Translations under genes and position numbers: made by a program
Shown: positions 26,754 through 43,965 of the stretch, piece by piece
How the letters are laid out: every line of letters starts with the position of its first letter
Numbering within the stretch: the first letter of the stretch is position 1
DNA from: an uncultured Desulforhopalus sp.
GTDB taxonomy: Bacteria; Desulfobacterota; Desulfobulbia; Desulfobulbales; Desulfocapsaceae
NCBI GenBank assembly: GCA_963677465.1
Contig: OY781976.1
Location: 5,247,678 to 5,311,677, forward strand
DNA length: 64,000 nt
Reading direction: 5' to 3'
Notes under the pieces: model-generated
The model's database searches: none
The model's input: only the letters and a program-made list of their open reading frames with translations
Told to the model about the DNA's origin: nothing

Positions 26754-27557
26754 CTATAAAAACTGCATTACTGGCCGCTCAATCAGCTGTTCCAGCGGAA
26801 CAGTGGTATATTTCTTCTGCAATGTGCCAAACAGGAGATCGAGTTCTTTTTGCCAATCGTCCAACTGGTTTTTCTGATTTGGCGGAAGGTCGTGGAGCAT
26901 TATTATATTGCCAGGTTGGAGACGTTTGAGGATTTTTTCGGCGAGCTTATGGATATTCCGGTTGCCTCGATCAAAGGCACGGCAGCTGTAATTTACCGTT
27001 ATGAGGCCTTCTTCTGCCAGCACTCTACTGAGACGAGAACCGGTGATCCCCGCAGGCGGCCTGAAAACGAGAGGTTTCACGCCATATTGTTTTAAGATTT
27101 CCTGATTCTTATGGATATCCTTCTGTATTCTTTTTTGGCTTCGGAACATGAGAAAATAATCATGATGCCAGGAATGATTGCCTATGGTATGGCCTCCATC
27201 AAGAATCCTTTGGATCAATTCAGGATGTTGAGCCGCCTTTTCACCTATCATAAAAAATGTCGCATTTAGGTTGTGACGTGCCAGTAAACCCAGCAGAACT
27301 GGCGTAGACAGAGGTGATGGACCGTCATCAAAGGTAAGGGCAATCGCCTCACTTCCTGCTTGGCCACGACTGATGACCGGCAGGAAAAAGCCAAATTCCG
27401 GCAAAAATGGTGCTGCAAAGCAGAGGATAAGGAAAACAATCAGCGGCAAGGCTGCCAGCAAAGGAGCAACACAAAAGAGAACAATCGCCAACAATAGCGC
27501 CAGAATGCCGGTTTTAGCAGCCAAAGACAAGGGTATCTTATTATTGTTATAGAGCAA
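26754..27557 (-). CDS. Membrane-anchored polysaccharide deacetylase (NodB homology domain)
   Basis: Two N-terminal TM helices, then NodB motifs LTFDDGP and GNHSWHH. Overlaps the end of the MMPL gene by 11 nt. Confidence 0.8.
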   Translation of the reverse strand: MLYNNNKIPLSLAAKTGILALLLAIVLFCVAPLLAALPLIVFLILCFAAPFLPEFGFFLPVISRGQAGSEAIALTFDDGPSPLSTPVLLGLLARHNLNATFFMIGEKAAQHPELIQRILDGGHTIGNHSWHHDYFLMFRSQKRIQKDIHKNQEILKQYGVKPLVFRPPAGITGSRLSRVLAEEGLITVNYSCRAFDRGNRNIHKLAEKILKRLQPGNIIMLHDLPPNQKNQLDDWQKELDLLFGTLQKKYTTVPLEQLIERPVMQFL

Positions 27558-30500
27558 TGGCCGTCTCTTTCTTCGCCCGACAGACCATCCAGACCAACTC
27601 CGGATTAACAGCCGAGACTTCGTTTACGGTGATTTCAAAACCCGCTTCTTTCATCAATTCCACTATATTTTCTGCGGTACGATAGTAGACAGGCCGGCCA
27701 GATAATTTTATGCGGCTATTCTCCAACCGCCAGGACCATGACGGCCGACCTGTCGGCAGCAGCGTAAACCTTGTCACCAGAAGACCTTTATCGCCAAGAG
27801 CCTGAAAACTTCTTTTGCATACAGCAGCAACAGTCGCATCGTCGAGATAGTGCAGCATATCCAAAAGTAAAACGATATCCGCCGGGCGGGAAACAACGGG
27901 CATCTCCGGGGCCCAGCCAACGGTTACCTCTCCCCGGTCAGCCACGGCCAGGGCCGCCACTCTCACCCTCTCGGGATCGGGGTCGATACCAAAAATTTCC
28001 GCGTCACGATACTGTTCCAGACACCAACAGGCCGGCACCCCAAAACCACAGCCAATGTCTATAATGGTTGTAATATTTTCATGTCCGGCTAGCATTCGGG
28101 GCAGATCCTTAAACATCGTATCATACTGTAACTTAAAGCGGGCAAACATCCTTGGATACGGCTCCAGGGTCTGGTAGCGATCACGAATGCGCAGGATGCT
28201 ATTTTTGTTGCTCGAACGGCCAACTTTACGATTTTGCCGAGCCACATAATTATTCAACAGCGGTGGCAGCAACAGAAAGGTACCAAGCAGAGAATAACCA
28301 ATACCAAGTAGAGACGTAATACCAATGCTTCTAAGTAAAGAATGTTCGGCAACAGCGAGCACCCCAAAACCGATCAGGGTAGAGGCCCCGGCCATAAAAA
28401 CAGCGACCCGCACGAGAACATAGGAAGGATGGTTGACATCACGGTATCGCTGATGGGCCCGCACACAAAAAATGGAGTAATCAATGCCCATACCAAGGAT
28501 GACAACCGACAACATAAGCGCCGGTATATCAAGAGGATGGTTGATAAGCTTCAAGGTTCCCAGAGTGCAGATATAGGCAAAAAAAGGTGGCAGCAAGGTG
28601 AGCAGCGTCAGCTGCAGGTTCAGATAGAAAAAAAATGTCAGTAAAACTATGCTGGCAGCAATGATCACCAGCATGGTGGTGAAGGTTGAAAACAAAATAT
28701 CAGCCAGCCTTTTTGTGAAAAAGCTGGCATCAAATATTTTGCCCAGCTTACCATAGCGACTCAAAAAATCAGCGCCGTCATAATATTTGCTCGGTTGAAT
28801 GGTAATAAACTGTATCAGTCCGGAGTTGCTTTCTTTTTCTGAGATACCCAGCAGGCCATAATATTTGGCCGGAATTGGTTGGGACTGTAGGGTAAATGAG
28901 GGGTCAAGCAGAGAAAGAAAATGATTAAAGGCATCAGGCATAAAGCCGAGCTCTGTTCCCGCCGCCCGCAAATCCTCTGCAAGCTGCTTCCCTCTGTGAT
29001 TACTCCAAAACTCATGCCAGGCGGCCAAGTTTTTCCTGGCTCTCTGCTCGCCTGGAAAAATCATCGACGGCACAAAGGCAGCGGTTATGTCCTCATCCTG
29101 GATGTCTTGTTCGATCTTGCCGAGAAGCTGGTCGTTGTCCGTTTGAATTCCGGCAATGCCGGCGATCCTATCGGCCGAATTCATCAGGAAAACCCGTTCG
29201 CCGATATTTCCCCAAACTTCTGTAAACAGTGCATCGGCGGCAAGAGTTTCCTCGCTCACGGTGTTCATGCTGCTAAGACTCACCTCAAATTGCGGTTTGG
29301 CAAAAATGAGCAGGACAACTGCCAGGAGAGCCGCAGCGCAGGCACCCGGCTTCCCGGTACTGTAGAGGATATTAACAAGGCCACGAAGGGGCAGGGCACG
29401 GCCACCGCCCGGCGGCATCACCGGAAAGATTCTCGGAAAAATTGTATGGACAAAGAGAAAAGAGAAGAAAATGCCAAGGGCGGTGAACTGACCCAGTTCA
29501 GCAAAAATCAAAAACCCGCTGGAGCTGAGAATCAAAAAGGCCCCGATGGAGGTAATGACAGCCATTAAACCGATGGCATAGACCTCATGGGCTGCTTCCT
29601 TGCCCTTGGTCTGATGATTTCGATCAAGAAACAGCAGGTAGGCAATACCATGATCCACCGTGATGGAGATAATCGCCCCACCAAAACCCAGCACCATAAT
29701 CGAGATGGATGAATGAAACAGGGAGTAGACAAAAAGGGCTGCACCCGTACCGGCAAGGGCAGGCACCAGGGATAACAGGCCAAGCAGGGGTCTGGGGAAG
29801 GCAAAAAGAAGGAGCAGGCCAATGCCCACAGTGGCCAGAATCAGGGCCAGTTGAACATCATGGCGGATTATAGTTTCGTTATCAAGAGCCGCCCGATAGG
29901 CCCCCACCGGCGTGAGTGTTACTTCGTGGCCTAACGAGGCGAATTTCTCACTGATTTCCCGGGTACTTTTGGCAATAAGCTCGGAAATCTTCCGGGCAGA
30001 CGCGGTATCGGTACCTGTTGCCCGTGGTCTGGCAACAACCAACAGATGATGACTGTCAGCCGAAAGCAGACTTCCCCGGTAAAATCTGGAGTTCAGCGAA
30101 GGCGCCAGTGGAGCCATCTTGGCAAGGATCAGATCTTTCAAACCAAGGGGATCCAGATCAATAAATTCCGCCTGCCCTATGCCGTCCATGCTACTCAGGT
30201 CCTGATACAGCTTTTGCAGACGTTTATGAATCTGCTCTGAACCAAGCAGTGGCGCGACCTTTTGTTCCAATTCCTTTTTTGAAAACAGTATTGGCAGGTT
30301 TCTCGCCGCGTGAAAGGCCAGCTGTGGAATCAGTTCGCCGATTGCATCGGTACCAACCTGGGCAAACAGGCCACTCTCCTCCATTTTCTTTTCAAGGAGG
30401 GAACCAACCTCAACCAGAGTATCCGGATCATCACTCTCCAGCATAATGTCCACAGCAATTTGATCATGCACGGGATGATGTTCAAAAATATCAAGAGCAT

Positions 30501-30630
30501 CGGCAATAACCTTTTCGCCGGACGGCAGGGAACGGGCCACATCGGTATCGATATCAAGGCGCAGCAGTCCCAAAGCGGCCAAGGTAAAAACAAGCACAGA
30601 AACACCGGTGAGCAGTCGATAATTGATCAT
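27547..30630 (-). CDS. MMPL/RND-superfamily lipid exporter fused to a C-terminal class I SAM-dependent methyltransferase
   Basis: 1027 aa. The first ~780 aa have the two-fold 1+5 TM pattern with large periplasmic loops of MMPL-type exporters. The last ~200 aa contain SAM-binding motif I (IIDIGCGFGVPACW), FGIDPD and LLLDMLHYL. Confidence 0.75.
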   Translation of the reverse strand: MINYRLLTGVSVLVFTLAALGLLRLDIDTDVARSLPSGEKVIADALDIFEHHPVHDQIAVDIMLESDDPDTLVEVGSLLEKKMEESGLFAQVGTDAIGELIPQLAFHAARNLPILFSKKELEQKVAPLLGSEQIHKRLQKLYQDLSSMDGIGQAEFIDLDPLGLKDLILAKMAPLAPSLNSRFYRGSLLSADSHHLLVVARPRATGTDTASARKISELIAKSTREISEKFASLGHEVTLTPVGAYRAALDNETIIRHDVQLALILATVGIGLLLLFAFPRPLLGLLSLVPALAGTGAALFVYSLFHSSISIMVLGFGGAIISITVDHGIAYLLFLDRNHQTKGKEAAHEVYAIGLMAVITSIGAFLILSSSGFLIFAELGQFTALGIFFSFLFVHTIFPRIFPVMPPGGGRALPLRGLVNILYSTGKPGACAAALLAVVLLIFAKPQFEVSLSSMNTVSEETLAADALFTEVWGNIGERVFLMNSADRIAGIAGIQTDNDQLLGKIEQDIQDEDITAAFVPSMIFPGEQRARKNLAAWHEFWSNHRGKQLAEDLRAAGTELGFMPDAFNHFLSLLDPSFTLQSQPIPAKYYGLLGISEKESNSGLIQFITIQPSKYYDGADFLSRYGKLGKIFDASFFTKRLADILFSTFTTMLVIIAASIVLLTFFFYLNLQLTLLTLLPPFFAYICTLGTLKLINHPLDIPALMLSVVILGMGIDYSIFCVRAHQRYRDVNHPSYVLVRVAVFMAGASTLIGFGVLAVAEHSLLRSIGITSLLGIGYSLLGTFLLLPPLLNNYVARQNRKVGRSSNKNSILRIRDRYQTLEPYPRMFARFKLQYDTMFKDLPRMLAGHENITTIIDIGCGFGVPACWCLEQYRDAEIFGIDPDPERVRVAALAVADRGEVTVGWAPEMPVVSRPADIVLLLDMLHYLDDATVAAVCKRSFQALGDKGLLVTRFTLLPTGRPSWSWRLENSRIKLSGRPVYYRTAENIVELMKEAGFEITVNEVSAVNPELVWMVCRAKKETAIAL

Positions 30631-30639
30631 GATTTTTTA

Positions 30640-31377
30640 TTACAACAACTTGAAAGTAACAAGAGCAGCCAGTGCAGCAAGAACCAGCAAAACGGCCAAA
30701 GAGGCAGGACGCAAAAGCCTTTTATTATTCTGGTAAAATTCGTTGGCCTTTTGGATAAACGGCAGGCCGCCTAAAATGCTTCGCAGCCAATTGATCACCA
30801 CCGTCCGGTTATCGGAACCCACCAAGCCCTGGAAGGCACACATTGGGGAGAGTGCATAAAAATCCCTGTTATGACGTCGTAATAACTCATCAAAGGGAAT
30901 ACCATTCCAGCCGTGCTGGATAATGACCTTGGCAAACGACTCATTTAAAGCATAGGCATGGGCCAGGCAGCGGTAGGTAATGTCGGCGAGGTTTTTCTTT
31001 TCCTTTTTACTGCCATCCGTAATGCAACCAAGAAAAAAAGCATTCCATTGGCCTATAGCATCAAGAGAGCAACAGCCTTCATGCAAGACATGGTGATCAA
31101 AACCTTGAAAGAAAACGTCGTCTTCAAAGATGAGGATATGCCTGGCATTTTCCTTCAGGCCCATTTTTAGACAGATCATGTGGGACTGAAAGATACCCTC
31201 TTCCGGGTTCACAGGATGTTTTGCCACAATGACAAATTCGACCCGCGGCAACAGTCCAACAGCGGCAAACTGTTGTCTGGCATGCTCTGTTCTATCCGGG
31301 CGCGAATCCAGAGAAATGCAATAGATTTTGTCGAAAAAGGCCCAACTGTCAGGTGGGTTGGATTCCAAGAGATTCAC
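30640..31377 (-). CDS. Glycosyltransferase family 25-like protein with a C-terminal TM anchor
   Basis: N-terminus FDKIYCISLDSRPDRTEHARQQF is typical of GT25 LPS-core glycosyltransferases. C-terminal hydrophobic helix LAVLLVLAALAALV. GTG start. Confidence 0.55.
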   Translation of the reverse strand: MNLLESNPPDSWAFFDKIYCISLDSRPDRTEHARQQFAAVGLLPRVEFVIVAKHPVNPEEGIFQSHMICLKMGLKENARHILIFEDDVFFQGFDHHVLHEGCCSLDAIGQWNAFFLGCITDGSKKEKKNLADITYRCLAHAYALNESFAKVIIQHGWNGIPFDELLRRHNRDFYALSPMCAFQGLVGSDNRTVVINWLRSILGGLPFIQKANEFYQNNKRLLRPASLAVLLVLAALAALVTFKLL

Positions 31378-31873: not shown

Positions 31874-32701
31874 TTATTTTCTCATTGCCCCGGTCACATC
31901 ACGCATACGCACACCGGTTACTGTTTCAAAGACCAGCCCATCATTGCCAAAAATAACCAGATCAAAAACCAGTTCGATGTCTGTCTGCATGACTTGCCGG
32001 ACTTTTGTGTAGTAACAACATCCCAATTGGGTCGGCCTGGTTATCACCCGCCTGTCAAAACCCACAGGAAAGGGCACAAAGCTGACAGCTTGTTGCCCGA
32101 GAACACAGGCGGCATGGAGCGCGCCATCCAGCGGAAAAGGTGAACCGATAATTTCCTGAACAGGATCTATTGCTAATTCGGGAGCTTTCAGCCTGCCCCA
32201 GGCCTCATGGCCGGAGAGGTAAAGGGTTTCCTGAAGCGTCTGGTAGTGCGAGCCAAAGGGAACCAGTTCACGGTACAGATGTTCCACCTTGATTTCAGTC
32301 ACCGGCCCTTTTGGCGGAGTACTGTCTATACTTGGTGATGGCTGACTGTGACTCTTGTGATTATCAGCCGGAGAAAAAACAACGGTGCCGTGCTCTTTGA
32401 TCCTGCTCATCGCCTTAAATTGCATCCGGCTGAGCAATTTAAGCTGCACCCGGCCATCACTTAAAACTTCACTTTCAACAAGGCCGTCAACCGTTGCGGT
32501 TGCCGGAGGAATTTCCAGGAACTTGGCAAAGCAAACATCTTCCATCACCCTGATATCGACTTGCGGATATAGCTGGCTTGCCTTGGCGGCAAGCAGGAGC
32601 ATGGTCTCCACCGCAGGCAGGACGATTTTACCTGCAAAGCAGTGATCCCGAAACCATGGTTTAACAGGAATTGTCAGAGGAAGGCGCCCGTCCACCATCA
32701 A
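31874..32701 (-). CDS. Free-standing polyketide-synthase-type dehydratase (double hot-dog, PS-DH)
   Basis: HxxxGxxxxP motif (HCFAGKIVLP) near the N-terminus and a DxxxH motif (LDGALHAAC) in the second half. The 275-aa length fits a double hot-dog fold. Confidence 0.65.
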   Translation of the reverse strand: MMVDGRLPLTIPVKPWFRDHCFAGKIVLPAVETMLLLAAKASQLYPQVDIRVMEDVCFAKFLEIPPATATVDGLVESEVLSDGRVQLKLLSRMQFKAMSRIKEHGTVVFSPADNHKSHSQPSPSIDSTPPKGPVTEIKVEHLYRELVPFGSHYQTLQETLYLSGHEAWGRLKAPELAIDPVQEIIGSPFPLDGALHAACVLGQQAVSFVPFPVGFDRRVITRPTQLGCCYYTKVRQVMQTDIELVFDLVIFGNDGLVFETVTGVRMRDVTGAMRK

Positions 32702-33174
32702 CGGGGAAACTCTTGCCAGAGGTTGATGGTTTTTTGATCAATCTCCACCGGAATACTCTTCTCATTGACCGCACAGTGCCTCGTGAAACCGGTGCAACAG
32801 GTTTCGCCGTTATCGGCTCTGGTGATCAGGTAATCAAACTGGAGTTTAACCATCTCAATTTTGGCGGGCCGGGTGTAAATATACATCAGGTCATCATAGA
32901 AGAGTGGCGAGTAATAATTAAGCTCTGTTTTTATAATGGGATAAATATAACCGCTTTCCTCGATTTTCTTATACGGATAGTTTGCCCCGCGCATCAGTTC
33001 TGCCCGGCCAAACTCAAAGTATTTCAAATAGTTGGCATGATAAACAACCTGGGAACGATCGGTATCGACATAGAGGGTACGCAGTTCACAACGGTGCCAG
33101 ATCAGCCCGCTGTTCTTATCTTTGACATAGCTGGGTTTATCCAGAAATTCGGGAATAAAGGGTTTTGGTCGCAT
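32698..33174 (-). CDS. Hot-dog fold acyl-CoA/acyl-ACP thioesterase (YbgC/4HBT-like)
   Basis: YVDTDRSQVVYHANYLKYFEFGR motif. Start set at the ATG that overlaps the upstream KS stop (TAATG). The track ORF extends to 33201. Confidence 0.7.
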   Translation of the reverse strand: MRPKPFIPEFLDKPSYVKDKNSGLIWHRCELRTLYVDTDRSQVVYHANYLKYFEFGRAELMRGANYPYKKIEESGYIYPIIKTELNYYSPLFYDDLMYIYTRPAKIEMVKLQFDYLITRADNGETCCTGFTRHCAVNEKSIPVEIDQKTINLWQEFPR

Positions 33175-34439
33175 TATAATCCTCGAAAGACGATGCAGCA
33201 ATTCGTCCCACCAAAACCAAACGAATTGGAGAGGACAAATTCATGTGCATGTTTGCGGGCGGTACCTGGAACCACATCCAGGTCATCAAAGGCAGGATCC
33301 GGAATATGATTAACGGTGGGCAGGACGATGCCCTGTTGCATGGCCTCGATAGCCAGTGCCGCTTCAATGGCGGCAGAAGCTCCAAGTGAGTGTCCGACCT
33401 GGGATTTGTTTGACGACACCGGAATGTTCGATACATTTTTACCGAAAACCGCCCGCAGGCACTCTACTTCCGTGCCATCACCTGTTGGCGTTGAAGTGCC
33501 ATGGGCATTTAAGGCACCAATGTCTGCCGGCGAAATCTCGGCATCAGCAATAGCATCATGCATGGCCCGGATAATGGTCGTACTATTTGGTCGGGTAAAA
33601 TGCAGGGCATCAGAGTTCCAGCCGATACCGGCAACTTCTGCCTTTGCCGTGAGACCTAAAGACTGGACGGCATCTTCGGCTGCCAGAACCAAAACGCCAG
33701 CCCCCTCTGCCAGAACAAAACCTTTGCGATCCAAACTAAATGGCCTTGAGGCTTGGGTGGGATCTTCGGCTGCACGATCTTTCGGGCTCACTTTGATGGT
33801 CGCCTGCATATTAGAAAAGCCCTGGATAATCTCCGGAACAAGGCATGTTTCAACACCACCGGCCAGAACGAAATCACAATCACCGTCCCGAATCATTCTT
33901 GCCCCGAGGGCAATGGCGTGATTGCCTGAGGCACAGGCCCCCTGGGGAGAAAAAATAGGCCCGGTGAAGCCCAGCAGCATGCCAGCCTTACCACCGGGCA
34001 GATTGGCACAAACATTGGGCAACAGATAAGGACTGACCTTCAACGGACCTTTATTGACATAATTATCCATTGCAATCCGGTAGGAATCAGTCCCATTCAG
34101 AGCTGATCCTATCAAACAACCTGTTCTGGGGCCGGTCTCACCATTTATTTCCAGTCCGGCATGAAGAAGGGCTCTCCGGCACACTTCCATGGTCAAAAAG
34201 ACATAATCAGCATTCCAGAGCGAGGCCTCTTTGCGGTTTACATAGGCAAGCTGGCTTGGATCCCAGTCGGGAATCTGCCCCACCACATTGCTGCGGCTTT
34301 TGGTCTCGCAACGGGTGAGTCTGCAAAAACCGGCCAATCCATCGACAGCGCCCTCCCATGTCGTGGCAAAAGTGTTACCCAGGGCAGTGGCGGTGTCATA
34401 GCCTACTACCATAACCCTTCTATTCAGTGGTGCCTTCAT
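33174..34439 (-). CDS. Beta-ketoacyl-ACP synthase (FabF/KAS II-like, Cys-His-His)
   Basis: Active-site Cys in GACASGNHAI. His motifs NAHGTSTPTGD and VGHSLGASAAIE. C-terminal NSFGFGGTN. Confidence 0.9.
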   Translation of the reverse strand: MKAPLNRRVMVVGYDTATALGNTFATTWEGAVDGLAGFCRLTRCETKSRSNVVGQIPDWDPSQLAYVNRKEASLWNADYVFLTMEVCRRALLHAGLEINGETGPRTGCLIGSALNGTDSYRIAMDNYVNKGPLKVSPYLLPNVCANLPGGKAGMLLGFTGPIFSPQGACASGNHAIALGARMIRDGDCDFVLAGGVETCLVPEIIQGFSNMQATIKVSPKDRAAEDPTQASRPFSLDRKGFVLAEGAGVLVLAAEDAVQSLGLTAKAEVAGIGWNSDALHFTRPNSTTIIRAMHDAIADAEISPADIGALNAHGTSTPTGDGTEVECLRAVFGKNVSNIPVSSNKSQVGHSLGASAAIEAALAIEAMQQGIVLPTVNHIPDPAFDDLDVVPGTARKHAHEFVLSNSFGFGGTNCCIVFRGL

Positions 34440-34448
34440 ATTTGGTAT

Positions 34449-35699
34449 CTATCTTACTTTTTTGAATATTGCACAGGCATTACAACCGCCGAAGCCAAAG
34501 GAATTTTTCAGAATGAATTCCTGTTCCAGAGAGCGTTTCCCTTCGACCACACAATCGATCTCAATTTCCGGATCAGGAGTGTAATTGATGGTGGGCGGTA
34601 CAATACTGTCTTCCATGCCTCGCAGGGCAAAGATGGATTCAATGACACTGGATGCCCCCATAGCGTGACCAATAAGCGATTTGTTGGCACAAACCGGCGG
34701 CAATGCCGCACCGAAAATTGCCTTCATCGCGTCATATTCAACCTTATCACCAACTCTGGTTGAAGCTGCATGGGCGTTTATTGCCGTAATATCCTGGGGT
34801 GCAAGCGAGGCATCGGTAATGGCATCAAGCATACACTTTTTGACGGTATCCAGATAGGGGGCAACGAAATGATGGGCATCCGAGGTCATACCCCAGCCAG
34901 CCAATTCCGTCTTATAGCCGAGACCATGGGTCTCGGCAAATTCCCTGGTGGTGAGAATCACCGCCCCGGCCCCTTCAGAAATGACAAAACCGCGCCGATC
35001 CACCGAAAAAGGCCTGCTGGCTATTTCCGGCCTATCATTTTCCCTGCCTTTCGTGGGGTTGTAGACACCGTTCATGGTATAGAAACCGGCGACAATAGGT
35101 TCAACCAAAGCAAAATCCACCGCCCCGCAGATGACGACATCGGCGCGATTCTGGGCCAGGAACATGGCACCAATGATCATCGATGTAAGGCCGGTGGCGC
35201 AGGCAGTAATAGTGGAGGTGATTGGCCCCTGGGCCCCGGTGAGCATGGCTATCTTGCCACCGACCATATTGATGCAGGAGTTGGGATTGACATAGGGCAA
35301 GGGCAGTTTGTTCTCTGCCTGCAACCGGCGATCGGCATTCAGAACCGCGTCCAGCCCGCCAATGGCAGAGCTATAGGTAACCGCTGTTCGAAGAGCAATA
35401 TCCGGGGTTAACTCGATGCCGCTTCGCCCAAGGGCCCTTGCCACCGAAAGCATGGAATACTTGAAGATCGGAGAACTCCAGGCCGCCTGATGCCTGGCCG
35501 ACAGGAAGGGATAGTCTTCATCATCGATATCCGGCACCTGCCCGGCAATATGGACGGGGAATTTATCCGGTAGCGGGAAGCGGGTCAAAGGGCCTATGCC
35601 GCTTTTCCCTGCAAGGGCCTGCTGCCACTGCTTGGCCAAATCACTTCCCAGGGGAGAAATGGCATCATAACCGACGATGACCGCGTCTTTTCCTCCCAT
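34449..35699 (-). CDS. Beta-ketoacyl-ACP synthase (FabF/KAS II-like, Cys-His-His)
   Basis: Active-site Cys in ITACATGLTSM. His motifs NAHAASTRVGD and IGHAMGASS. C-terminal NSFGFGGCN. Confidence 0.9.
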   Translation of the reverse strand: MGGKDAVIVGYDAISPLGSDLAKQWQQALAGKSGIGPLTRFPLPDKFPVHIAGQVPDIDDEDYPFLSARHQAAWSSPIFKYSMLSVARALGRSGIELTPDIALRTAVTYSSAIGGLDAVLNADRRLQAENKLPLPYVNPNSCINMVGGKIAMLTGAQGPITSTITACATGLTSMIIGAMFLAQNRADVVICGAVDFALVEPIVAGFYTMNGVYNPTKGRENDRPEIASRPFSVDRRGFVISEGAGAVILTTREFAETHGLGYKTELAGWGMTSDAHHFVAPYLDTVKKCMLDAITDASLAPQDITAINAHAASTRVGDKVEYDAMKAIFGAALPPVCANKSLIGHAMGASSVIESIFALRGMEDSIVPPTINYTPDPEIEIDCVVEGKRSLEQEFILKNSFGFGGCNACAIFKKVR

Positions 35700-35706
35700 A
35701 TGATTT

Positions 35707-36705
35707 TTACCAGGGGATAAATTGATAGAGCTTGGCGAACATTTCGTAGACCTCGATCCAATTCTGCAGATCTTTCGGAGTTTTGATATGAGCCCGCTTG
35801 TTGACCATGGCCCAACTCATATGGGCAGCACCATCCTTGCAGGTGCTACAGTCACGGGTTTCCGAGGTACAACAGCGATGCATGGTCTGCAAGTCAGAAG
35901 ACCAGCGAATAAAATTGGTCAAGCGCTTGGGGCGTGGGTCTCTCTTGTCGATGGGTTCGGTCACCGAGGGACATTCCATCCAGCCAAAAGTCCGGCCGAG
36001 CATTTTTCCGGTGGTGATAATCTCGTGGTAATATTTACAGGAAATAACTGTCTCCGGGTACTTGTCCAACATATCATCCATTTCTGCGCGAATGGCGATC
36101 AGTTCCTCAGGTTTCCAGGAAAAGCCATCCACATCTTCGTCGTTGGACAGAAGCTGCATTTGCACCTTTAGGCCCACATCCTTAATCTTACGGATGATCT
36201 TTTCTGTCTTACCAAGTTGCTTCGGGGTGATGGTGTACAGATAATATGCGTGGGGATCACCCTGGTAGTTGGCACTGGAGATCTTGAAAGTGTCTTTGCC
36301 GCGAAGAGTCGTCTCGTCTTCAGCATCACCCCACAGCGAGATACCGACCATCATCTCCGGGAAACGATCTCTGGGGACTTTAATTAACCCATTGGTGGCA
36401 CAGAAGGTGGGCAATCTTTTGTAAAAGGCCTCAACTCGATCGAGACAAAGTGTCGGTTCGCCGCCGATCAGAATAGCCAGGTTTACCCCGCGAGCCATCT
36501 CTTTTTCCACAAAGGCATGCCATTTATTGACGTCCTTTTCCTCGGATGCCACCTCGTGTTCACCGGAGGAAAAGAAGAAACAACCCTTGCAACGCAGGTT
36601 ACAACGGTCTGTCACATCATAGATGGAGCTGCGAATGTTGAGCTTGGAAATTTTTTTATAGCGATCATACCAGTGATCATCGAGGAGAGAACTGACAGTT
36701 ATCAT
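35707..36705 (-). CDS. Radical SAM protein (paralog A of a tandem pair)
   Basis: CxxxCxxC motif DRCNLRCKGCFF, GGEPT, and a C-terminal Cys cluster (CCTSETRDCSTC). Clearly paralogous to the next gene. Confidence 0.85.
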   Translation of the reverse strand: MITVSSLLDDHWYDRYKKISKLNIRSSIYDVTDRCNLRCKGCFFFSSGEHEVASEEKDVNKWHAFVEKEMARGVNLAILIGGEPTLCLDRVEAFYKRLPTFCATNGLIKVPRDRFPEMMVGISLWGDAEDETTLRGKDTFKISSANYQGDPHAYYLYTITPKQLGKTEKIIRKIKDVGLKVQMQLLSNDEDVDGFSWKPEELIAIRAEMDDMLDKYPETVISCKYYHEIITTGKMLGRTFGWMECPSVTEPIDKRDPRPKRLTNFIRWSSDLQTMHRCCTSETRDCSTCKDGAAHMSWAMVNKRAHIKTPKDLQNWIEVYEMFAKLYQFIPW

Positions 36706-36712
36706 AATATTA

Positions 36713-37765
36713 CTAATCGTTTAAAGGCGGATTGACGAAGCTGTCACAGAGATTCAACCCCTTCTCGTACCCTCTAACCCAGACGGCAAGATAGGTGTCG
36801 GCATAATCGAGCCAGGCAGAAAAGGTCACCGGATCTGTAGCATGTCGATACATTCTGGCCGTAACCACTGCACTGCCCGCGGCATAATGTCGACAGTCGC
36901 TGCAATCGGTATCCGGCACACAGCAGGCAGCATCACGGTTCCATTGCAGATCGGTGCGATACTGCCTGAAAGATCTGCCGAGTCCAATGTCCGTGGAGGG
37001 ATTCATCCTGGGATAGGTACAGGAAAAAAGGTCATGCAATCCCTTTTCGTTGGTATGGGCAACAATATTATAGGGCGAAAAGAGAACAGTTTGTGGATAA
37101 TTGGCCAGCAGCTCAGTCATAATCGCCCGGGTTTTGTGCAGCGATTGGGCGGTATGACGCAGAGGTCCATCGTAACCAACGGGTGCAGAAAACATATTAA
37201 AAGTGATTTGCTGACCGTTATCTGCCAACTGTCTGGTCACTTCCCGCGCCTCATCAATATTAAATGGGGTAAAGGTGTAAACAAAGACAGCCCTGGGATC
37301 ATCCTGGTAATTGGCCATCTGCCGAGCGAGCATATTGGGAGCCTTGCGAATGGCCAGGCTGGTTTGGTCATTGCCCCAGACCGAGATATGAATTCGGTAA
37401 TCTATTTCCCGAGGAATGAGTTTGAGGCCATTTGTGGCTATCGCCCCCAGCGGGATAATTTCATAACAAACGGCACAGAGTTGTGACACCAGCGATGGTT
37501 CGGCTCCGGCGAGGACAACAAAGGTTATTCCCCGCTCTTTTTCTGACAAAAGAAGCTGTCGCCAGTCTGTTTCGCTGTTATTTTCCGCGGCAAACTGTTT
37601 TTCGCCAACGAAATAGTAACATCCATCACAACGAATATTACAGCGGTTACTCATGTCATAGGTGGATTCGCGCAGAAAAAAATAACGACGAACCTTTTCC
37701 CAGCGTTCCTTGATAAGCGGGTCTGCAATAATATCAGAGAATTTATATTTTTGCTGAACTGGCAT
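36713..37765 (-). CDS. Radical SAM protein (paralog B of a tandem pair)
   Basis: CxxxCxxC motif NRCNIRCDGCYY, GAEPS, and a C-terminal Cys cluster (CCVPDTDCSDC). Shared blocks with paralog A: ATNGL, S(L/V)WG, ANYQxDP. Confidence 0.85.
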   Translation of the reverse strand: MPVQQKYKFSDIIADPLIKERWEKVRRYFFLRESTYDMSNRCNIRCDGCYYFVGEKQFAAENNSETDWRQLLLSEKERGITFVVLAGAEPSLVSQLCAVCYEIIPLGAIATNGLKLIPREIDYRIHISVWGNDQTSLAIRKAPNMLARQMANYQDDPRAVFVYTFTPFNIDEAREVTRQLADNGQQITFNMFSAPVGYDGPLRHTAQSLHKTRAIMTELLANYPQTVLFSPYNIVAHTNEKGLHDLFSCTYPRMNPSTDIGLGRSFRQYRTDLQWNRDAACCVPDTDCSDCRHYAAGSAVVTARMYRHATDPVTFSAWLDYADTYLAVWVRGYEKGLNLCDSFVNPPLND

Positions 37766-38032
37766 CTATTCGTTACTGTTACGTTTGTCTTCGATATACT
37801 GGGCAATGATGCGAACGGTCGTCAGCTTAGGATAATCGTCTTCATCTATCTGTATTTCGTATTCATCTCTTAGAAACAGGGCAACGGTTGCCATGTCCAT
37901 GGAATCGATACCCACCTCGTTGACCAAATCCAGGTCGGCGTCAAAGGTCTCGGCGGTAACATCTTCAAGTTTAAGCTCGTCGATGATGATTTCAGCTATT
38001 CGGGTAATGGTCTTATTAATATCGTTGCTCAT
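37766..38032 (-). CDS. Acyl carrier protein
   Basis: 88 aa and acidic, with attachment motif VGIDSMDMATV. It abuts the rSAM start and overlaps the dehydratase end. Confidence 0.85.
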   Translation of the reverse strand: MSNDINKTITRIAEIIIDELKLEDVTAETFDADLDLVNEVGIDSMDMATVALFLRDEYEIQIDEDDYPKLTTVRIIAQYIEDKRNSNE

Positions 38033-38372
38033 GAATTTGTTTTTTTGCGTTTTCAGTTTCGTTTAAGGTGAAAAACATCCAGCCGGAACAGACATCCTGA
38101 TCGCCGCTGGTAATTTTAAAAATATATTGATCTTTTTTATTGCCGGTGGTGATGTGAATATCAAGCAATTCCCCAGGTCTGACAATTTTTCTGAATTTGA
38201 CCCGGGTCACCCCCGTCATAGACAAATTCCCTTCTCCGGACTTGGAAATAAGATCGGCAACCATCTTCAACTGGGCAATTCCCGGCAAAATAGGGTTATC
38301 GGGAAAGTGTCCAGAAAACCAAGGAGAATCACTATCAGTTGCTATGGAAGCAACCATTTTACCTTCTTCCAT
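38016..38372 (-). CDS. FabZ/FabA-like 3-hydroxyacyl-ACP dehydratase (single hot-dog)
   Basis: WFSGHFPDNPILPGIAQLKMV catalytic His motif. An alternative start at the internal ATG (38357) has a better GAAGG Shine-Dalgarno. Confidence 0.75.
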   Translation of the reverse strand: MEEGKMVASIATDSDSPWFSGHFPDNPILPGIAQLKMVADLISKSGEGNLSMTGVTRVKFRKIVRPGELLDIHITTGNKKDQYIFKITSGDQDVCSGWMFFTLNETENAKKQIHEQRY

Positions 38373-38721: not shown

Positions 38722-39393
38722 ATGAAGAGAATTCCCGAGCAAGCGCTGATGAACGACCCGGACCAGGCCACCGCCTACGCGGGGAGTGACTTGGACAACG
38801 CCTATTGGCTGTTCGTGCAATTGTTTCGTAAATATTTCCCTGCCCTCCAACCAGACAATGCAATTCTCGATCTGGGATGTGGCCCGGCCGCCATCCCGCT
38901 ACGCCTGGCCAAACTTTTCGGCAAATGCCAGATTCACTGCGTCGACGGTTCCGCAAGCATGATATCACAGGGAAAACAAGCTGTACAGCGGGAGGGCCTG
39001 GAAGAGCAGATCCATTTTTTCAAAGCCTGCATGCCGGACAAACTGCCACTGCCACAGAATCGTTACAAAGTGATTATTTCCAATAGCTTCCTGCACCATC
39101 TCGCCGATCCGATGATTTTGTGGAATGCTCTCCACGAGTATTGTCTGCCAGAGGCGGCAATCCTCATTGTCGACCTGTTGCGACCGGCAAATGAAGAAAG
39201 AGCCCAGTTGCTGGTTGACCAATATATGCCTGATGCCCCGCCCCTCCTTCGCCAGGATATGCTGATCTCTCTAAGGGCCGCGTTTACCCTGGACGAAGTC
39301 AAGGCACAATTAGAGGTGGCCAACCTTACTGCAAACATTTCGCTCGCCATGGCAACTCCTTTTCAGTTTGCGGCTTATGGATATTTAACCTGA
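38722..39393 (+). CDS. Class I SAM-dependent methyltransferase
   Basis: Motif I ILDLGCGPAAIP, post-I HCVDGS, and motif II-like VIISNSFLHHL. Confidence 0.8.
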   Translation: MKRIPEQALMNDPDQATAYAGSDLDNAYWLFVQLFRKYFPALQPDNAILDLGCGPAAIPLRLAKLFGKCQIHCVDGSASMISQGKQAVQREGLEEQIHFFKACMPDKLPLPQNRYKVIISNSFLHHLADPMILWNALHEYCLPEAAILIVDLLRPANEERAQLLVDQYMPDAPPLLRQDMLISLRAAFTLDEVKAQLEVANLTANISLAMATPFQFAAYGYLT

Positions 39394-39423: not shown

Positions 39424-40617
39424 ATGAAACTGAGCGTCGCTGTAAATTGGGACCGGGCCTTATTAGACGGCCTGGCGGACATCCCGGAAGTAACTTCGAT
39501 CTATGCCAAACTCCCCTTCGACGTTGTCGGTGGAGGCCGCGCAGGTATCGTCATCCCATCCGTCGACTGGGATTTTGCCGCAGCATATATTGACAAAGCC
39601 CATCAGCTCGGCCTGTCTTTTTGCTACCTTATCAACGCACCTTGCCTTGGCAATTTAGAACAAACCGAACAAGGCAAGAAACAGATACTTTCCTTGGTTG
39701 GCCAACTGGTCGATATGGGCGTTGACAGCGTATCAATCGCCAACCTAGCCGTCGTCGCTCTGGTTCGCCGTAATTTCCCACAACTGGCTATCCGTGGCAG
39801 CGTCCTGAGCTGGCCAACAAACCTATCCCGACTGAAGTATCAGGAATCACTCGGCATCGATCCGATAATCATTCCCTACAGCGAGTTCAACCGTGATTTC
39901 AACATGTTACCAAAAATACGCTCTGGGCTGTCATGTGACATGCAACTCTTTGTCAACGTTTCCTGTATCTATAACTGTCATTATCTGGCTGAACACGCCA
40001 ACAGCGTGGGCCACGCATCCCAGGTGAGCCAAAATAGTCAGCGCCCAAACTCCTTCCTCGACTTCTACCTCTGGCAATGCACACGCCGGCGCCTGCTCCA
40101 CCCTGAGCTTATGCTGATGAGTCGCTGGATTCGCCCTGAAGACCTTCATATCTACGAGGCTATGGGCTTTGATGAATTTAAGATTATTGATCGTTCGCGC
40201 TCTACAGCCTGGCTGCTGCGCGCCACCAAGGCCTATGCTGACCGGTGTTACGACGGCAACCTTCTGGACATCCTCTCGCTGGAAATGCTCGGCGATCCGG
40301 TCGGATTCCACAGTGACATAGAAGATCAAATCCGTGAACGAATGCGGCATTATACAAAAGAAGAACGGCAACTCATGTCACGCATGCTCAAACTGCGACG
40401 TCGACTCCTGGCCCTGGATCTCCAGATCGACAATGCCGAATTAGCCAATTTTCTGGAAGGTTTTCAAAAAATCAAGTGCGCAGAAACCTACTGTGAGAAT
40501 TGCCGCCATTGTCATAGATATGCCGAGAGAGCCATTCGCTTTGACCGGGCTGAAGCGAAAATTCTGGCAGACGACATCAGCAAACTGCTTGAAGATTCCC
40601 TGACCATGGCGACTTAA
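39424..40617 (+). CDS. Hypothetical protein with a C-terminal Cys cluster (possibly peptidase U32-like TIM-barrel family)
   Basis: 397-aa ORF 30 nt after the methyltransferase gene. It has a CAETYCENCRHC cluster near the C-terminus and VSCIYNCHY mid-protein. The U32-like assignment comes from weak memory only. Confidence 0.35.
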   Translation: MKLSVAVNWDRALLDGLADIPEVTSIYAKLPFDVVGGGRAGIVIPSVDWDFAAAYIDKAHQLGLSFCYLINAPCLGNLEQTEQGKKQILSLVGQLVDMGVDSVSIANLAVVALVRRNFPQLAIRGSVLSWPTNLSRLKYQESLGIDPIIIPYSEFNRDFNMLPKIRSGLSCDMQLFVNVSCIYNCHYLAEHANSVGHASQVSQNSQRPNSFLDFYLWQCTRRRLLHPELMLMSRWIRPEDLHIYEAMGFDEFKIIDRSRSTAWLLRATKAYADRCYDGNLLDILSLEMLGDPVGFHSDIEDQIRERMRHYTKEERQLMSRMLKLRRRLLALDLQIDNAELANFLEGFQKIKCAETYCENCRHCHRYAERAIRFDRAEAKILADDISKLLEDSLTMAT

Positions 40618-40649: not shown

Positions 40650-41681
40650 TTATTTTGTCTCAGAGTTTCGCCAGCAGGTGGGATCTGAGGCCAGATAATC
40701 ACCGGTGAGCTGGTAGGCTGCCCCTCTACAGCCATAGCATTCCGCCGCTTTTTCACAGCTATGGCACTCGCCTTTAATCATCTGCCGGTAATTCTTCAGA
40801 TTGTTGACAACTTCACTGTTTTTCAGGATAGATGCCAGTTTTTCGCGGCGAATATTATCAAGAGGAATGGTAACGCCGACACAGGGCATGACATCACCCG
40901 TCGAGGTCACCACGCAGGACACCTGATGGCGCATGCATTTATTACCAACCAGCGGTGGTTGCGGTTCCCATGTCCGGCCAAACTTTTCCTGATCAATTGC
41001 CGAAAGCTGGATAAAGAGCCCCTTCAGTTCTCCTGACGAAACGCCAAGCCAGCTATTTTCCAGAGCATGGGCCTGGGGAGTGAGCACTTCAAAATATGGT
41101 TCAATATTTTCCTCGCGCAGCCACTGCCAGAGGGACGGTAATTCTTTGATGTTTTGCTGACAGATCACCGTACTTACGGCCAGAAACAACTCCTGCGACG
41201 GATAGCCAGCGGCTTTCAAAGCTGCAAGGGCACGGTTTATAATTTTAAAAGCACCCTTTTTCCCGGCAAGCTGATCCTGGACCTGTTTATCCCGGGAATT
41301 CATTTTTAGGGCAATCCGCACCTTTTCCCTGGCAAGCACTGTGGCCAGGGCTGCATCGATCCCAGAACCATTGGTAAACATCTCGATTTCCAGCCCCTCT
41401 TTACTGAGAAAGAGCAGCATTTCCACCAGATGCGGATAAAGAGAAGGTTCGCCGCCGAGAATGATTATTTTTCGTGCCCCCAGTGCTTTAGCCTGGAGGA
41501 TGACATCTTTGATTTCGTCTTTTGAGAGCTCATTGCCACAGTCAATTTTTTCCTCAACATAGCAATAAGAGCAGCGAAAATTACAGACTCGGCTGAATTC
41601 GATTTCCATGGAGAGCAATTTATCCGCCGCCACCGCCTCACGAATCTCCTGCTCGGTGAATTCAAGATTATAAATCTGCAT
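40650..41681 (-). CDS. Radical SAM protein with a SPASM/twitch-like C-terminal Cys-rich domain
   Basis: CxxxCxxC motif RVCNFRCSYCY, GGEPS, and a C-terminal CHSCEKAAECYGCRG plus extra Cys residues (CMRHQVSCVV..MPC). Confidence 0.8.
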   Translation of the reverse strand: MQIYNLEFTEQEIREAVAADKLLSMEIEFSRVCNFRCSYCYVEEKIDCGNELSKDEIKDVILQAKALGARKIIILGGEPSLYPHLVEMLLFLSKEGLEIEMFTNGSGIDAALATVLAREKVRIALKMNSRDKQVQDQLAGKKGAFKIINRALAALKAAGYPSQELFLAVSTVICQQNIKELPSLWQWLREENIEPYFEVLTPQAHALENSWLGVSSGELKGLFIQLSAIDQEKFGRTWEPQPPLVGNKCMRHQVSCVVTSTGDVMPCVGVTIPLDNIRREKLASILKNSEVVNNLKNYRQMIKGECHSCEKAAECYGCRGAAYQLTGDYLASDPTCWRNSETK

Positions 41682-41686
41682 TGCTC

Positions 41687-43177
41687 TTAATAATCCTCAA
41701 GATCCTGAAACTTGTTCATATTTTCCCAACGTTCCATCTCTTTTTCATAGCGGCCCTGCCAGCCAATTTTTCTCATGACCCACCGATAACGCAATTTCAA
41801 AAATGGTTTAAACATGAAACGCCAAATGGATATCCACAGCCAGCCCTGACTTCTCACCTGGGCAGGTGGATTCCACCAACCCAATACCACTTGGCGCTGA
41901 TACCAAAAGTGATACTGGAGCTGCGCCGAATCTAAATACTTCGTCCGCACATTGGCCCACATACCACTATATCTTTTATAATTTGTCTCATTGATTATCA
42001 AGCCCTGCTCCAAAAGATGCTGGCGCATTCCGGTTTTCGGATAGGGGGTCAGGACCTGACAGTAGGCGGCGTCGGCCTGAATCGATTTGAAGAATTCATA
42101 ATTTTCTCTGATGGACTCTTCGTCATCCTCAGGAAAGCCAAAAATGAGACCACCAATGACCATCATGTTGTACTTATGACAATTATCAATAGCCTTCTTG
42201 GCATAAACCACGGTGTTGACCTTGTCGGCAACATTCAGATTCTTTTTCGAACCATTCTCAATACCTAGAAAAACCGAACAAAAACCGGCCGCGGCCATCT
42301 TGGCGACCATGTCCTCGTTGTTGGCCATGGACAAACAATCGGCCTGAACAATAAACCGAAGACCTGTGTAATTTCGAGCAATGATAGCATCACAGAGCTC
42401 TATGACCCTCGCCGGTTTTAAGACCATATTATCATCGGTGATAAATATATATCTTGTTTTCCGGTTATAATAAATATCGTCAATATCGGCGAGAACCCTG
42501 CTAATAGGATAGGTCCTGAAGGTTCGGCCATACATATGCTTCATCGAACAAAAATTACAGGTGCGGGTACAGCCGCGGGAAGTCTCGATGAGTTCAATTT
42601 TGGAATTTAAGATATGGTATCCCCAGGTCAATCGCCGCTTGTCCCGGACCGGCAATTTCAAGGTACTGAGGTCAAGGTTTTCGCCCCGCGGATTGTGCAC
42701 AAACACGCCATCCACTTTATATGACAGTGAAGGGATATCAGCCAGTGTGTCACGGCCGTCCATGGCGTTCACCAGTCGGCGGCAGGCCTCTTCCCCTTCT
42801 CCCCGGATCAAAAAATCTATCCACTGGGACTCTTTGGATGCTGAAGTCTCCTCGTACATCAAGGTGGCGTGATAACCGCCGATCACAATTTTAACGCCAG
42901 GCAGGAGTTCTTTGATCAGGTGGGCAATCCTGATGCAGGTATCAAACTGCCAGGCCATGGACGAGAGACCAACAAGGTCGGGCTGGAATTTTTTGATCAC
43001 CTTGGTGAGATATTTTTTAATCGAACGACGTTTCCGAACCAGGTCAATAAGAATGACATCATGCTCTTCATCGATATTGCCGGCGAGTGTTGCTATACCG
43101 TGGTTTGGCAAATGAATTGCAGCCTCGTGAATAATCACCGGCACCACATCGGGCATGGATATCAACAGAACTTTCAT
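41687..43177 (-). CDS. B12-binding-domain (class B-like) radical SAM protein
   Basis: N-terminal Rossmann-like segment (MKVLLISMPD...VGLSSM...IVIGGYHAT), then SRGCTRTCNFCS. Confidence 0.8.
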   Translation of the reverse strand: MKVLLISMPDVVPVIIHEAAIHLPNHGIATLAGNIDEEHDVILIDLVRKRRSIKKYLTKVIKKFQPDLVGLSSMAWQFDTCIRIAHLIKELLPGVKIVIGGYHATLMYEETSASKESQWIDFLIRGEGEEACRRLVNAMDGRDTLADIPSLSYKVDGVFVHNPRGENLDLSTLKLPVRDKRRLTWGYHILNSKIELIETSRGCTRTCNFCSMKHMYGRTFRTYPISRVLADIDDIYYNRKTRYIFITDDNMVLKPARVIELCDAIIARNYTGLRFIVQADCLSMANNEDMVAKMAAAGFCSVFLGIENGSKKNLNVADKVNTVVYAKKAIDNCHKYNMMVIGGLIFGFPEDDEESIRENYEFFKSIQADAAYCQVLTPYPKTGMRQHLLEQGLIINETNYKRYSGMWANVRTKYLDSAQLQYHFWYQRQVVLGWWNPPAQVRSQGWLWISIWRFMFKPFLKLRYRWVMRKIGWQGRYEKEMERWENMNKFQDLEDY

Positions 43178-43965
43178 ATTTGTCTCTCACTAAAGGCCCG
43201 CCTCACCCGCTGCTCAAGCTCGGCGGTGGAAGGTGGATGGTTTTCATAGTCCGGTTCAATGCAATCGATAATTTTAACGCTGATAGTATTTTTAATCCTG
43301 GTATTGAAGAAGAACTTCCCCGGAGTAAAAAGTTTATCGGTATTACGGATTTCCAAGACATACACCGGCGCCCTGTACATCCGGGCAATTTTCAATGCCC
43401 CCTTATTCAAAGCGCCCATTTTGCCGTCGCGGCTCCTGGTTCCTTCCGGGAAGATAAAAAGATTGCCCCCAGAACGAAGATACGACTCCATAGTTTCCAT
43501 TTGCTTGATCATCAGCCGGGCAAACGGCCCTTCACTGGAGGCAGGCAGATAGCCGGATTTGGTAATTATCCAGCCAAAAATCGGCATGGCAAAAAATCGT
43601 GATTTAACAATGGTCTTCTGTTGCCGAAAAAGAGCGATGAGCAGGAGTGGATCGAGATAGGAAAGGTGATTACAGACGATAACCGAAGACCTGATGGCGG
43701 CAATTTTTTCATCAATCACCATCCGCTGACGGGGCGCAGTCACCCTGACGATAAGAAAGAAGATCCGGTAAAAGTGGCTGTTGAACCGCTGAAAATACAG
43801 CTCAGGCTCCTTCACGAGCAGAAAAGCGGCCAGATAGAACCAGGAGAAAAAGAGCAGGAAACCAAAAATAAACCAGGCCCAGCAGACAAGAGTGACAATA
43901 CAATCAATACATTGGGCAATAAAAGAACGAATAGAGGAATTATTACCGGTCTGCATCTCTACCAT
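43174..43965 (-). CDS. Lysophospholipid acyltransferase (PlsC/LPLAT family), membrane-anchored
   Basis: HX4D motif NHLSYLD and FPEGTRS motif, with N-terminal TM helices. 4-nt overlap with the downstream rSAM gene. Confidence 0.8.
   Translation of the reverse strand: MVEMQTGNNSSIRSFIAQCIDCIVTLVCWAWFIFGFLLFFSWFYLAAFLLVKEPELYFQRFNSHFYRIFFLIVRVTAPRQRMVIDEKIAAIRSSVIVCNHLSYLDPLLLIALFRQQKTIVKSRFFAMPIFGWIITKSGYLPASSEGPFARLMIKQMETMESYLRSGGNLFIFPEGTRSRDGKMGALNKGALKIARMYRAPVYVLEIRNTDKLFTPGKFFFNTRIKNTISVKIIDCIEPDYENHPPSTAELEQRVRRAFSERQI

Follow-up and report, generated by a model that had tools for sequence, protein, structure and literature searches.

In a 64,000-nucleotide (nt) stretch from an uncultured Desulforhopalus sp. 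(GenBank assembly GCA_963677465.1, contig OY781976.1, positions 5,247,678 to 5,311,677 of the forward strand; the window, in whose numbering all coordinates are given) we analyzed a tandem pair of radical S-adenosylmethionine (SAM) proteins, rSAM-1 and rSAM-2, that is embedded in a fatty acid synthase (FAS)-like gene unit. The reading that we tentatively prefer, at somewhat less than an even chance, is that of two non-redundant radical SAM enzymes that act successively or as a complex on an acyl group carried on an acyl carrier protein (ACP), with a net oxygen-free oxidation as the result. The cluster type is already in the literature; it is the case for a carrier-bound substrate that is strengthened by the comparative sequence data.

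Sequence features of the radical SAM pair

The proteins rSAM-1 (35707-36705, minus strand, 332 amino acids (aa)) and rSAM-2 (36713-37765, minus strand, 350 aa) share 28% identity over 320 residues in a pairwise BLASTP (E 5e-42). This similarity is far beyond chance and confirms the paralogy stated in an earlier, sequence-only reading of this DNA (the original prediction), and all motif blocks listed there were found in both proteins. More explicitly, the radical SAM cysteine motif reads YDVTDRCNLRCKGC in rSAM-1 and YDMSNRCNIRCDGC in rSAM-2 and has the CX3CX2C form in both (C35/C39/C42 and C42/C46/C49, respectively). The GGE-type motif is also kept in both paralogs, as GGEPT and GAEPS, and the ATNGL motif is the same in the two, while the WG and NYQ blocks read SLWGD and ANYQGDP in rSAM-1 and SVWGN and ANYQDDP in rSAM-2. 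The C-terminal cysteine motif, CCTSETRDCSTC in rSAM-1 and CCVPDTDCSDC in rSAM-2, is part of a common pattern C...CC x6-7 C xx C, formed by C245, C278, C279, C286 and C289 in rSAM-1 and by C249, C281, C282, C288 and C291 in rSAM-2.

The three radical SAM cysteines and the five C-terminal cysteines were 100% conserved in 234 rSAM-1 and 121 rSAM-2 sequences. As all eight are kept, both paralogs look catalytically complete. Over 24 diverse members of the family the CX3CX2C, GxE, NG and Y..D.R motifs were invariant, and the (near-)invariant residues were C35, C39, C42, G81, E83, N105, G106, Y147, D150, R152, C278, C286 and C289. The original prediction held that the C-terminal cysteines could carry an auxiliary Fe-S cluster, and their invariance fits this. 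Judged from the sequences, the five-cysteine segment of each enzyme probably harbors such a cluster, putatively of a twitch-like kind.

The eight-gene unit around the pair

The pair belongs to a unit of eight core open reading frames (ORFs), all on the minus strand and each in agreement with its Pfam assignment; the ORF list and Pfam together confirm the unit and the gene order that had been read from the sequence. The first gene encodes a FabZ/ApeI-like single hot-dog dehydratase (38016-38372, 118 aa), which scored 36.8 bits with PF07977 and 31.1 bits with the ApeI-like PF22818 (cut-off 28.5) and had 3esi and 6qsr as PDB matches. It is followed by a dedicated ACP (37766-38032, 88 aa) with the phosphopantetheine site GIDSMD, a PF00550 score of 32.5 bits and ACPs as PDB matches, and then by rSAM-2 and rSAM-1. 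Next come two FabF-like ketosynthases (KSs), KSa (34449-35699, 416 aa) and KSb (33174-34439, 421 aa), a YbgC/4HBT-type thioesterase (TE; 32698-33201, 167 aa) assigned to PF13279 and to TIGR00051 (81 bits, cut-off 68.7), and, as the last core gene, a double hot-dog dehydratase of the polyketide synthase (PKS) type (PS-DH; 31874-32701, 275 aa; PF14765 and PF21089).

The genes are packed closely. The start codon of rSAM-2 directly abuts the stop codon of the ACP gene (0 nt), 7 nt separate rSAM-2 from rSAM-1, another 7 nt rSAM-1 from KSa and 9 nt KSa from KSb, and TE and PS-DH overlap by 4 nt. For these five junctions the earlier statement that gaps and overlaps measure at most 10 nt is correct; it does not hold for the FabZ-like/ACP and KSb/TE junctions, where the overlaps are 17 nt and 28 nt, values that hinge on the start codons of the longest ORFs. 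A scan for promoters and terminators gave counts of 11 versus 10.2 ± 3.0 and 15 versus 10.7 ± 3.1 in shuffled controls, and since these are not clearly higher than the controls, the limits of the operon were not set from them.

The Cys/His/His catalytic triad is intact in KSa (Cys167/His310/His345) and in KSb, and was kept in all four KS domains aligned (these two, 43943-45190 on the minus and 58440-59600 on the plus strand). We considered whether KSa and KSb could be a ketosynthase/chain-length-factor pair with a dead subunit. Given the conservation of the triad in both, this was ruled out and the two are taken as active enzymes, in contrast to the arrangement reported for amxFabF2/amxFabFmut of anammox bacteria.

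Placement of the pair among radical SAM families

Neither protein reached the gathering score of the radical SAM family PF04055 (29.5 bits); rSAM-1 scored 26.0 bits and rSAM-2 18.5 bits, and the match of both was limited to the first 60-65 positions of the model. These sub-threshold scores reflect the divergence of the family and not an exclusion from the radical SAM superfamily. The best NCBIfam scores were 24-30 bits, against cut-offs of 180-650 for the families concerned (SkfB, anSME, PqqE, AhbC/D, NirJ, MoaA, Tes and viperin), so that no cut-off was approached and the expectation that the pair falls outside the housekeeping and well-characterised radical SAM families was borne out. Both proteins lack a SPASM match at E <= 0.01 in Pfam as well as the seven-cysteine SPASM motif, and a recognition element for peptides made on ribosomes and then post-translationally modified (RiPPs) was not detected in either by the Pfam and NCBIfam scans. 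The family TIGR04072 (rSAM_ladder_B12, cut-off 360 bits), which co-clusters with the pair, is matched by neither and represents a different class, with an N-terminal B12-binding domain that the pair lacks. At E <= 0.001 a HMMER scan of 1.84 billion representative proteins recovered just 451 clusters, a number that fell to 207 at E <= 1e-10. The pair thus belongs to a small, distinct family without a curated model.

The structure models of AlphaFold2 (AF2) had a mean predicted local distance difference test score (pLDDT) of 80.7 and a predicted TM-score (pTM) of 0.84 for rSAM-1, and values of 79.7 and 0.85 for rSAM-2. Both models adopt the partial TIM-barrel fold of radical SAM enzymes; the barrel was modelled with confidence, the cysteine-rich loop poorly. 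In Foldseek searches of the PDB the top matches were anSMEcpe, CteB and BlsE for rSAM-1 and SuiB, SkfB, BlsE and CteB for rSAM-2, with PqqE, viperin and GDGT-MAS among the further matches of the pair. The fold matches had a TM-score of ~0.5 at 13-18% identity (best E ~4e-9). The two models had 38 and 60 PDB matches at E <= 0.001, and nearly all among those listed are radical SAM enzymes. The five invariant cysteines are positioned as for a twitch-type C-terminal extension, in a region that was modelled at pLDDT < 50 in rSAM-1. Given this poor modelling, it is conservation that points to the auxiliary cluster.

Among the solved structures SkfB (6efn), a twitch-domain sactipeptide thioether synthase, was the best match by sequence, and the family profile aligned with it over the radical SAM core at E 9.6e-18. 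SkfB and the pair have a radical SAM core followed by a cysteine-bearing C-terminal segment in common. The pair nevertheless scored only 17.5-20.4 bits with the SkfB family model (cut-off 300), lacks the peptide-binding N-terminal domain, has a different cysteine pattern, and neighbors genes for ACP, KS and dehydratase instead of one for a precursor peptide. The top structural neighbors anSMEcpe (4k37), SuiB (5v1s) and CteB (5why) act on proteins or peptides, and the pair differs from them in having no Pfam SPASM match.

These relationships raise the question whether rSAM-1 and rSAM-2 could be maturases that form a cross-link, epimerise a residue or generate a formylglycine-like group in the ACP, a ketosynthase or an unannotated peptide. 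The peptide and protein substrates of the best sequence and fold matches (SkfB, CteB, SuiB, anSME, PqqE and EpeE) speak for it, as does the small size and acidic nature of the neighboring 88-aa ACP. The similarity is, however, confined to the common radical SAM core at the low TM-scores and identities given above, the RiPP recognition element and the SPASM domain went undetected, and the small neighbor has a normal ACP serine motif and lies among KS, dehydratase and TE genes. Moreover, relatives of the pair in Blastocatellia adjoin an AMP-ligase that would load the carrier. Maturation of a protein or peptide therefore seems to us distinctly unlikely. We read the two proteins as bona fide radical SAM enzymes with a non-canonical, putatively twitch-like auxiliary cluster site. 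They have no close characterised relative and constitute a new variant of the SPASM/twitch-like radical SAM enzymes.

Conservation of the unit within the Desulfobacterota

A scan of GTDB with one genome per species yielded at least 562 related stretches, of which the best 80, all containing rSAM-1 orthologs at least 82% identical to that of the window, were used for comparison. In these 80 species genomes the rSAM-1 orthologs were 82-95% and the rSAM-2 orthologs 68-91% identical; neither anammox bacteria nor Desulfotalea were represented among these best 80. Most of the loci came from Desulfobulbales (Desulforhopalus, Desulfopila, Desulfocapsa, Desulfofustis, Desulfogranum and Desulfobulbus), and the remainder included the Desulfobacterales Desulfosarcina variabilis and Desulfatitalea. 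Homolog searches, including a profile search, gave only close orthologs among the top 120 matches; Desulfonema limicola and one Spirochaetota metagenome-assembled genome (MAG) were among the protein matches listed.

The order FabZ-like, ACP, rSAM-2, rSAM-1, KSa, KSb, TE, PS-DH was intact in 57 of the 80 loci (tblastn with the window proteins), and in the other 23, mostly short contigs, a rearranged core was not seen. The ACP gene lay directly upstream of rSAM-2 in 74 loci and PS-DH was present in 59. The linkage to ACP and KS genes was conserved in all 80 genomes wherever the contig extends far enough, in line with what the original prediction had expected of other genomes. Mean identity to the window was highest for rSAM-1 (87.5%), followed by KSb (81.0%), rSAM-2 (79.1%), TE (78.7%), ACP (77.3%) and KSa (76.4%), with the FabZ-like protein (56.0%) and PS-DH (49.2%) far behind, and in 53 of the 57 complete loci rSAM-1 was the best-conserved protein. 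Such constraint is unusual for a 'tailoring' enzyme and suggests that rSAM-1 makes many constrained contacts.

Relatives in other lineages

The named members of the further clades of the family included Blastocatellia, Beijerinckia, Sphingomonadaceae and one 'Deltaproteobacteria' MAG; no anammox bacterium was found among the few that carry a name. In L084, from an unrelated metagenomic lineage, the pair is kept in the same order within a differently arranged FAS-like cluster, which runs KS, KS, rSAM-2-type (46% identity), rSAM-1-type (36%), ACP, KS, and then MaoC and FabH. In L092, from a second such lineage, an ACP gene is followed by frameshifted rSAM-2-type and rSAM-1-type genes. The recurrence of the same pair in distant lineages implies that the duplication is old and that both copies were retained. 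The glycan cluster of L086, which lacks a KS, includes an rSAM-2-type gene (43% identity) that overlaps an ACP gene at its end. Finally, in L082 (Blastocatellia MAG, GCA_035275065.1, 9325-13627) a radical SAM gene (33% identity) stands between a PaaA/PaaC-like gene and one for an AMP-ligase of 596 aa, and a SnoaL-like gene and one for a carrier protein follow. This cassette may represent a separate, unexplored carrier-protein-based pathway. An AurF-like oxygenase was encoded near it.

The joint retention of both types in the same order in distant lineages, and the much stronger conservation of rSAM-1 than of rSAM-2, would also be expected of an obligate heterodimer in which one paralog is catalytic and the other a structural or ACP-docking partner. 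Yet the radical SAM cysteines, the GGE-type motif and the five C-terminal cysteines are 100% conserved in both, and in L086 the rSAM-2-type gene stands alone with an ACP. We regard a division into one catalytic and one non-catalytic subunit as improbable.

What the nearer clades share as a neighbor is a carrier protein, not a ketosynthase. In the distant clades L081, L089, L090 and L091 there was no carrier protein nearby, so that only the rSAM-1, rSAM-2 and Blastocatellia-type clades can be called 'ACP-linked'; the L081-like group is large and comes from Alphaproteobacteria, and L088 is ambiguous in this respect. The carrier-free clades lend some weight to the idea that a soluble, non-tethered small molecule, such as a starter unit or head group, is what the pair produces or modifies, in the way of MqnE/MqnC or CofG/CofH, with the ACP adjacency merely expressing shared regulation of a pathway. 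Moreover, the AMP-ligase, the glycosyltransferases and the pair of a U32-family protein and a methyltransferase encoded elsewhere in the window could handle free intermediates. Against this, the clades closest to the pair, from at least four lineages, all adjoin a PP-binding gene whatever their other neighbors, and in the window rSAM-2 begins directly after the stop codon of the ACP gene. A soluble substrate is unlikely on balance, albeit still to be reckoned with.

Proposed function

The course that follows is inferred in all its parts: the tethering of the substrate to the ACP, the successive action of the enzymes, the kind of reaction and what becomes of the product. Each enzyme would combine a SAM-cleaving [4Fe-4S] site with the putative twitch-like auxiliary cluster, and the substrate would be an acyl group on the phosphopantetheine arm of the unit's ACP. 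The 5'-deoxyadenosyl radical would take a hydrogen atom from the chain, and the auxiliary cluster would act as the sink for a second electron; SPASM enzymes likewise abstract a hydrogen atom and then remove an electron via their auxiliary clusters. The reaction is most likely an oxidative C-H functionalisation of the ACP-tethered chain, and its net outcome would be an oxygen-free two-electron oxidation that leads to a new C=C bond or to a C-C ring closure or cross-link. KSa/KSb would then extend the modified chain before its release, and, as in pathways of the aryl-polyene type, the chain could become part of an exported envelope (glyco)lipid. The two enzymes would catalyse two different, probably successive steps; the paralogous pairs AhbC/AhbD, NirJ1/NirJ2, CofG/CofH and MqnE/MqnC also perform different, successive steps. 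The core has two dehydratases and no enoyl reductase, which fits, weakly, with an unsaturated chain.

Several points weigh against this proposal. The C-terminal cysteine region of rSAM-1 (residues 241-283) was modelled by AF2 at pLDDT < 50, most of the nearest solved relatives have peptide or protein substrates and not lipids, a carrier protein is missing near the distant clades mentioned above, and biochemical data on any family member were not found in the literature searched. In addition, adjacency is compatible with a starter unit and with a finished chain as well as with a growing one. The original prediction had put the pair to work on ACP-bound growing chains; as far as carrier-bound substrates are concerned this gains comparative support, with an ACP adjoining family members in three further lineages, in two of them without KS.

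In a more specific version, the unit would build carbocycles stepwise on an unsaturated chain carried by the ACP, closing one ring by radical chemistry in each round of elongation. It could cover ladderane-type strained rings or other C-C cross-links, and we assign it little probability. It matches the 'type c' proposal for ladderane synthesis (PMC10139942).

A possible parallel to chemistry on a growing chain is offered by the cyclopropanase Jaw5, to which the pair had no relationship in sequence or fold in the profile and Foldseek searches, so that the parallel is an analogy only. As a HemN-like enzyme, Jaw5 obtains a methylene group from a second SAM. Working with an iterative PKS, this radical SAM cyclopropanase (Jaw5/C10P) sets a precedent for growing-chain chemistry between elongation rounds (PMC13459092).

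The wider supercluster

The region from ~22 kb to 63.5 kb of the window is one lipid supercluster. Downstream of the core, on the minus strand, lie genes for a GT25 glycosyltransferase (30640-31377), a fusion of an MMPL/RND transporter with a methyltransferase (27547-30630) and a polysaccharide deacetylase (26754-27557), which were co-located in 28-41 of the 80 loci. Divergent from the core, on the plus strand, are a SAM methyltransferase (38722-39393) and a U32-family protein (39424-40617) that is weakly UbiU/TrhP-like and has a C-terminal cysteine cluster. The two were kept together in 11 of the 80 loci and may act as an oxygen-independent hydroxylase and an O-methyltransferase.

Further along, the minus strand encodes a SPASM-type radical SAM protein (40650-41681, 343 aa), a BchE-like B12-binding radical SAM protein (41687-43177, 496 aa), and, between 43174 and 45466, a lysophospholipid-type acyltransferase, a third ketosynthase (KSc, 43943-45190) and a second ACP. 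A second B12-like radical SAM protein (425 aa) is found at 54237-55514, again on the minus strand; a curated family cut-off was reached by none of these three radical SAM proteins. On the plus strand, a TIGR04072 rSAM_ladder_B12 protein (60608-61957, 392 bits) is flanked by a gene for a fused KS and Ketoacyl-synt_2 protein (from 58440, 723 aa) and one for a phytoene-desaturase-like amine oxidase (62049-63536). Across the 80 loci a TIGR04072 ortholog lay upstream of the FabZ-like gene in 35, and it ended 91-213 nt before that gene in the nine loci that were checked. Together with the pair, the supercluster thus contains six radical SAM genes (the pair, SPASM type, BchE-like, second B12-like and TIGR04072). 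It also encodes a FlxB-like FabG, LolA, an AMP-ligase, a GT2 glycosyltransferase, lipid A-type and lysophospholipid acyltransferases and PagL. Given the presence of the TIGR04072, fused KS and phytoene-desaturase-like genes, the region was classified as a "ladderane-like"/aryl-polyene-like supercluster.

In its parts list the window resembles aryl-polyene and flexirubin clusters, with which it shares an ApeI-like dehydratase, paired KSs, two ACPs, a FlxB-like ketoreductase and a 4HBT thioesterase, as well as an AMP-ligase, acyl- and glycosyltransferases, LolA-like proteins and an MMPL exporter. The parts by which an aryl-polyene-type cluster is recognized (ApeI-like dehydratase, paired KS, ACP, thioesterase and LolA/MMPL) were all found. 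With the ApeI-like dehydratase, FlxB-like FabG, LolA, MMPL, glycosyltransferase and acyltransferase genes, the region has an aryl-polyene-like export logic. Aryl-polyene clusters are not known to contain radical SAM genes, in contrast to the six encoded here; the intact catalytic triad of both core KSs is a further difference.

Amid the supercluster, two proteins encoded at 47211-48952 on the minus strand, a 395-aa AAA_21 ATPase and a 185-aa DUF4276 protein, matched the candidate defence system HEC-01 of PADLOC with 686 and 285 bits. These genes sit in a patch of 42% GC, which looks like an inserted defence island.

Relation to known clusters and implications

The window is clearly a cluster of the FAS-like/radical SAM type that was reported for Desulfotalea in 2009. 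The genes kuste3335-3352 of Kuenenia were described as strikingly syntenic with Desulfotalea psychrophila, including the radical SAM pairs Kuste3343/DP1855 and Kuste3342/DP1853 (Rattray et al. 2009, PMC2649909). Like the window, Kuenenia has two adjacent radical SAM genes, there in the order FabZ, ACP, FabG, rSAM, rSAM, CoA ligase (PMC2649909, PMC4790861), and its cluster is made up of the same parts, in that FabF paralogs and a CoA ligase are accompanied by a membrane transporter, a glycosyltransferase and a deacetylase (PMC2649909, PMC4790861). Gene order and the shared parts suggest that the pair studied here may be the same as the Kuenenia/Desulfotalea pair. The trio of fused KS, TIGR04072 and phytoene-desaturase-like genes corresponds to the parts list of the anammox 'Cluster I' (amxFabF2/amxFabFmut, B12 radical SAM, PDH; bioRxiv 10.64898/2026.05.19.726425; PMC10139942). 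The anammox clusters, on the other hand, have FabF paralogs with mutated active sites, whereas the triads of KSa and KSb are intact (PMC2649909; bioRxiv 10.64898/2026.05.19.726425). Comparable biosynthetic gene clusters, annotated as 'ladderane' by antiSMASH, have also been reported, without explanation, for Desulfobacterota MAGs (PMC9902471). In view of these precedents from Desulfotalea and anammox bacteria (PMC2649909) and from the MAGs, the novelty of the finding was overstated in the original prediction.

Ladderane lipids were not detected in Desulfotalea psychrophila, the Desulfobacterota species analysed by Rattray et al. (PMC2649909). When Kuste3342 and Kuste3343 were expressed heterologously in E. 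coli, the two proteins went undetected (PMC4790861), and in a review from 2026 the radical SAM enzymes of the ladderane pathway still count as unknown (PMC13459092). The link made by Rattray et al. between the cluster type and the C31:8/C31:9 hydrocarbons of Desulfotalea is doubtful, and we gave it no weight either way. Such polyolefins are reported to come from the Pfa/OleABCD route (Sukovich et al. 2010).

The family presents itself as a second candidate beside Jaw5, and a far more widespread one, with its at least 562 related stretches in species-level genomes. It is present in bacteria that can be grown in pure culture, and rSAM-1 is under stronger constraint than its companion ketosynthases. 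The conservation of their operon in sulfate-reducing bacteria makes the two enzymes good, culturable candidates for radical chemistry without oxygen on fatty chains attached to a carrier. Solving the reaction would explain the 'ladderane-like' clusters of non-anammox bacteria and could bring to light a way of desaturating or cyclising fatty chains without oxygen. Should the improbable case of stepwise carbocycle formation prove true, cultured sulfate reducers, among them Desulfosarcina variabilis, Desulfofustis glycolicus and Desulfogranum japonicum, would be tractable systems, and would open up a chemistry that has been beyond reach in anammox bacteria for twenty years.

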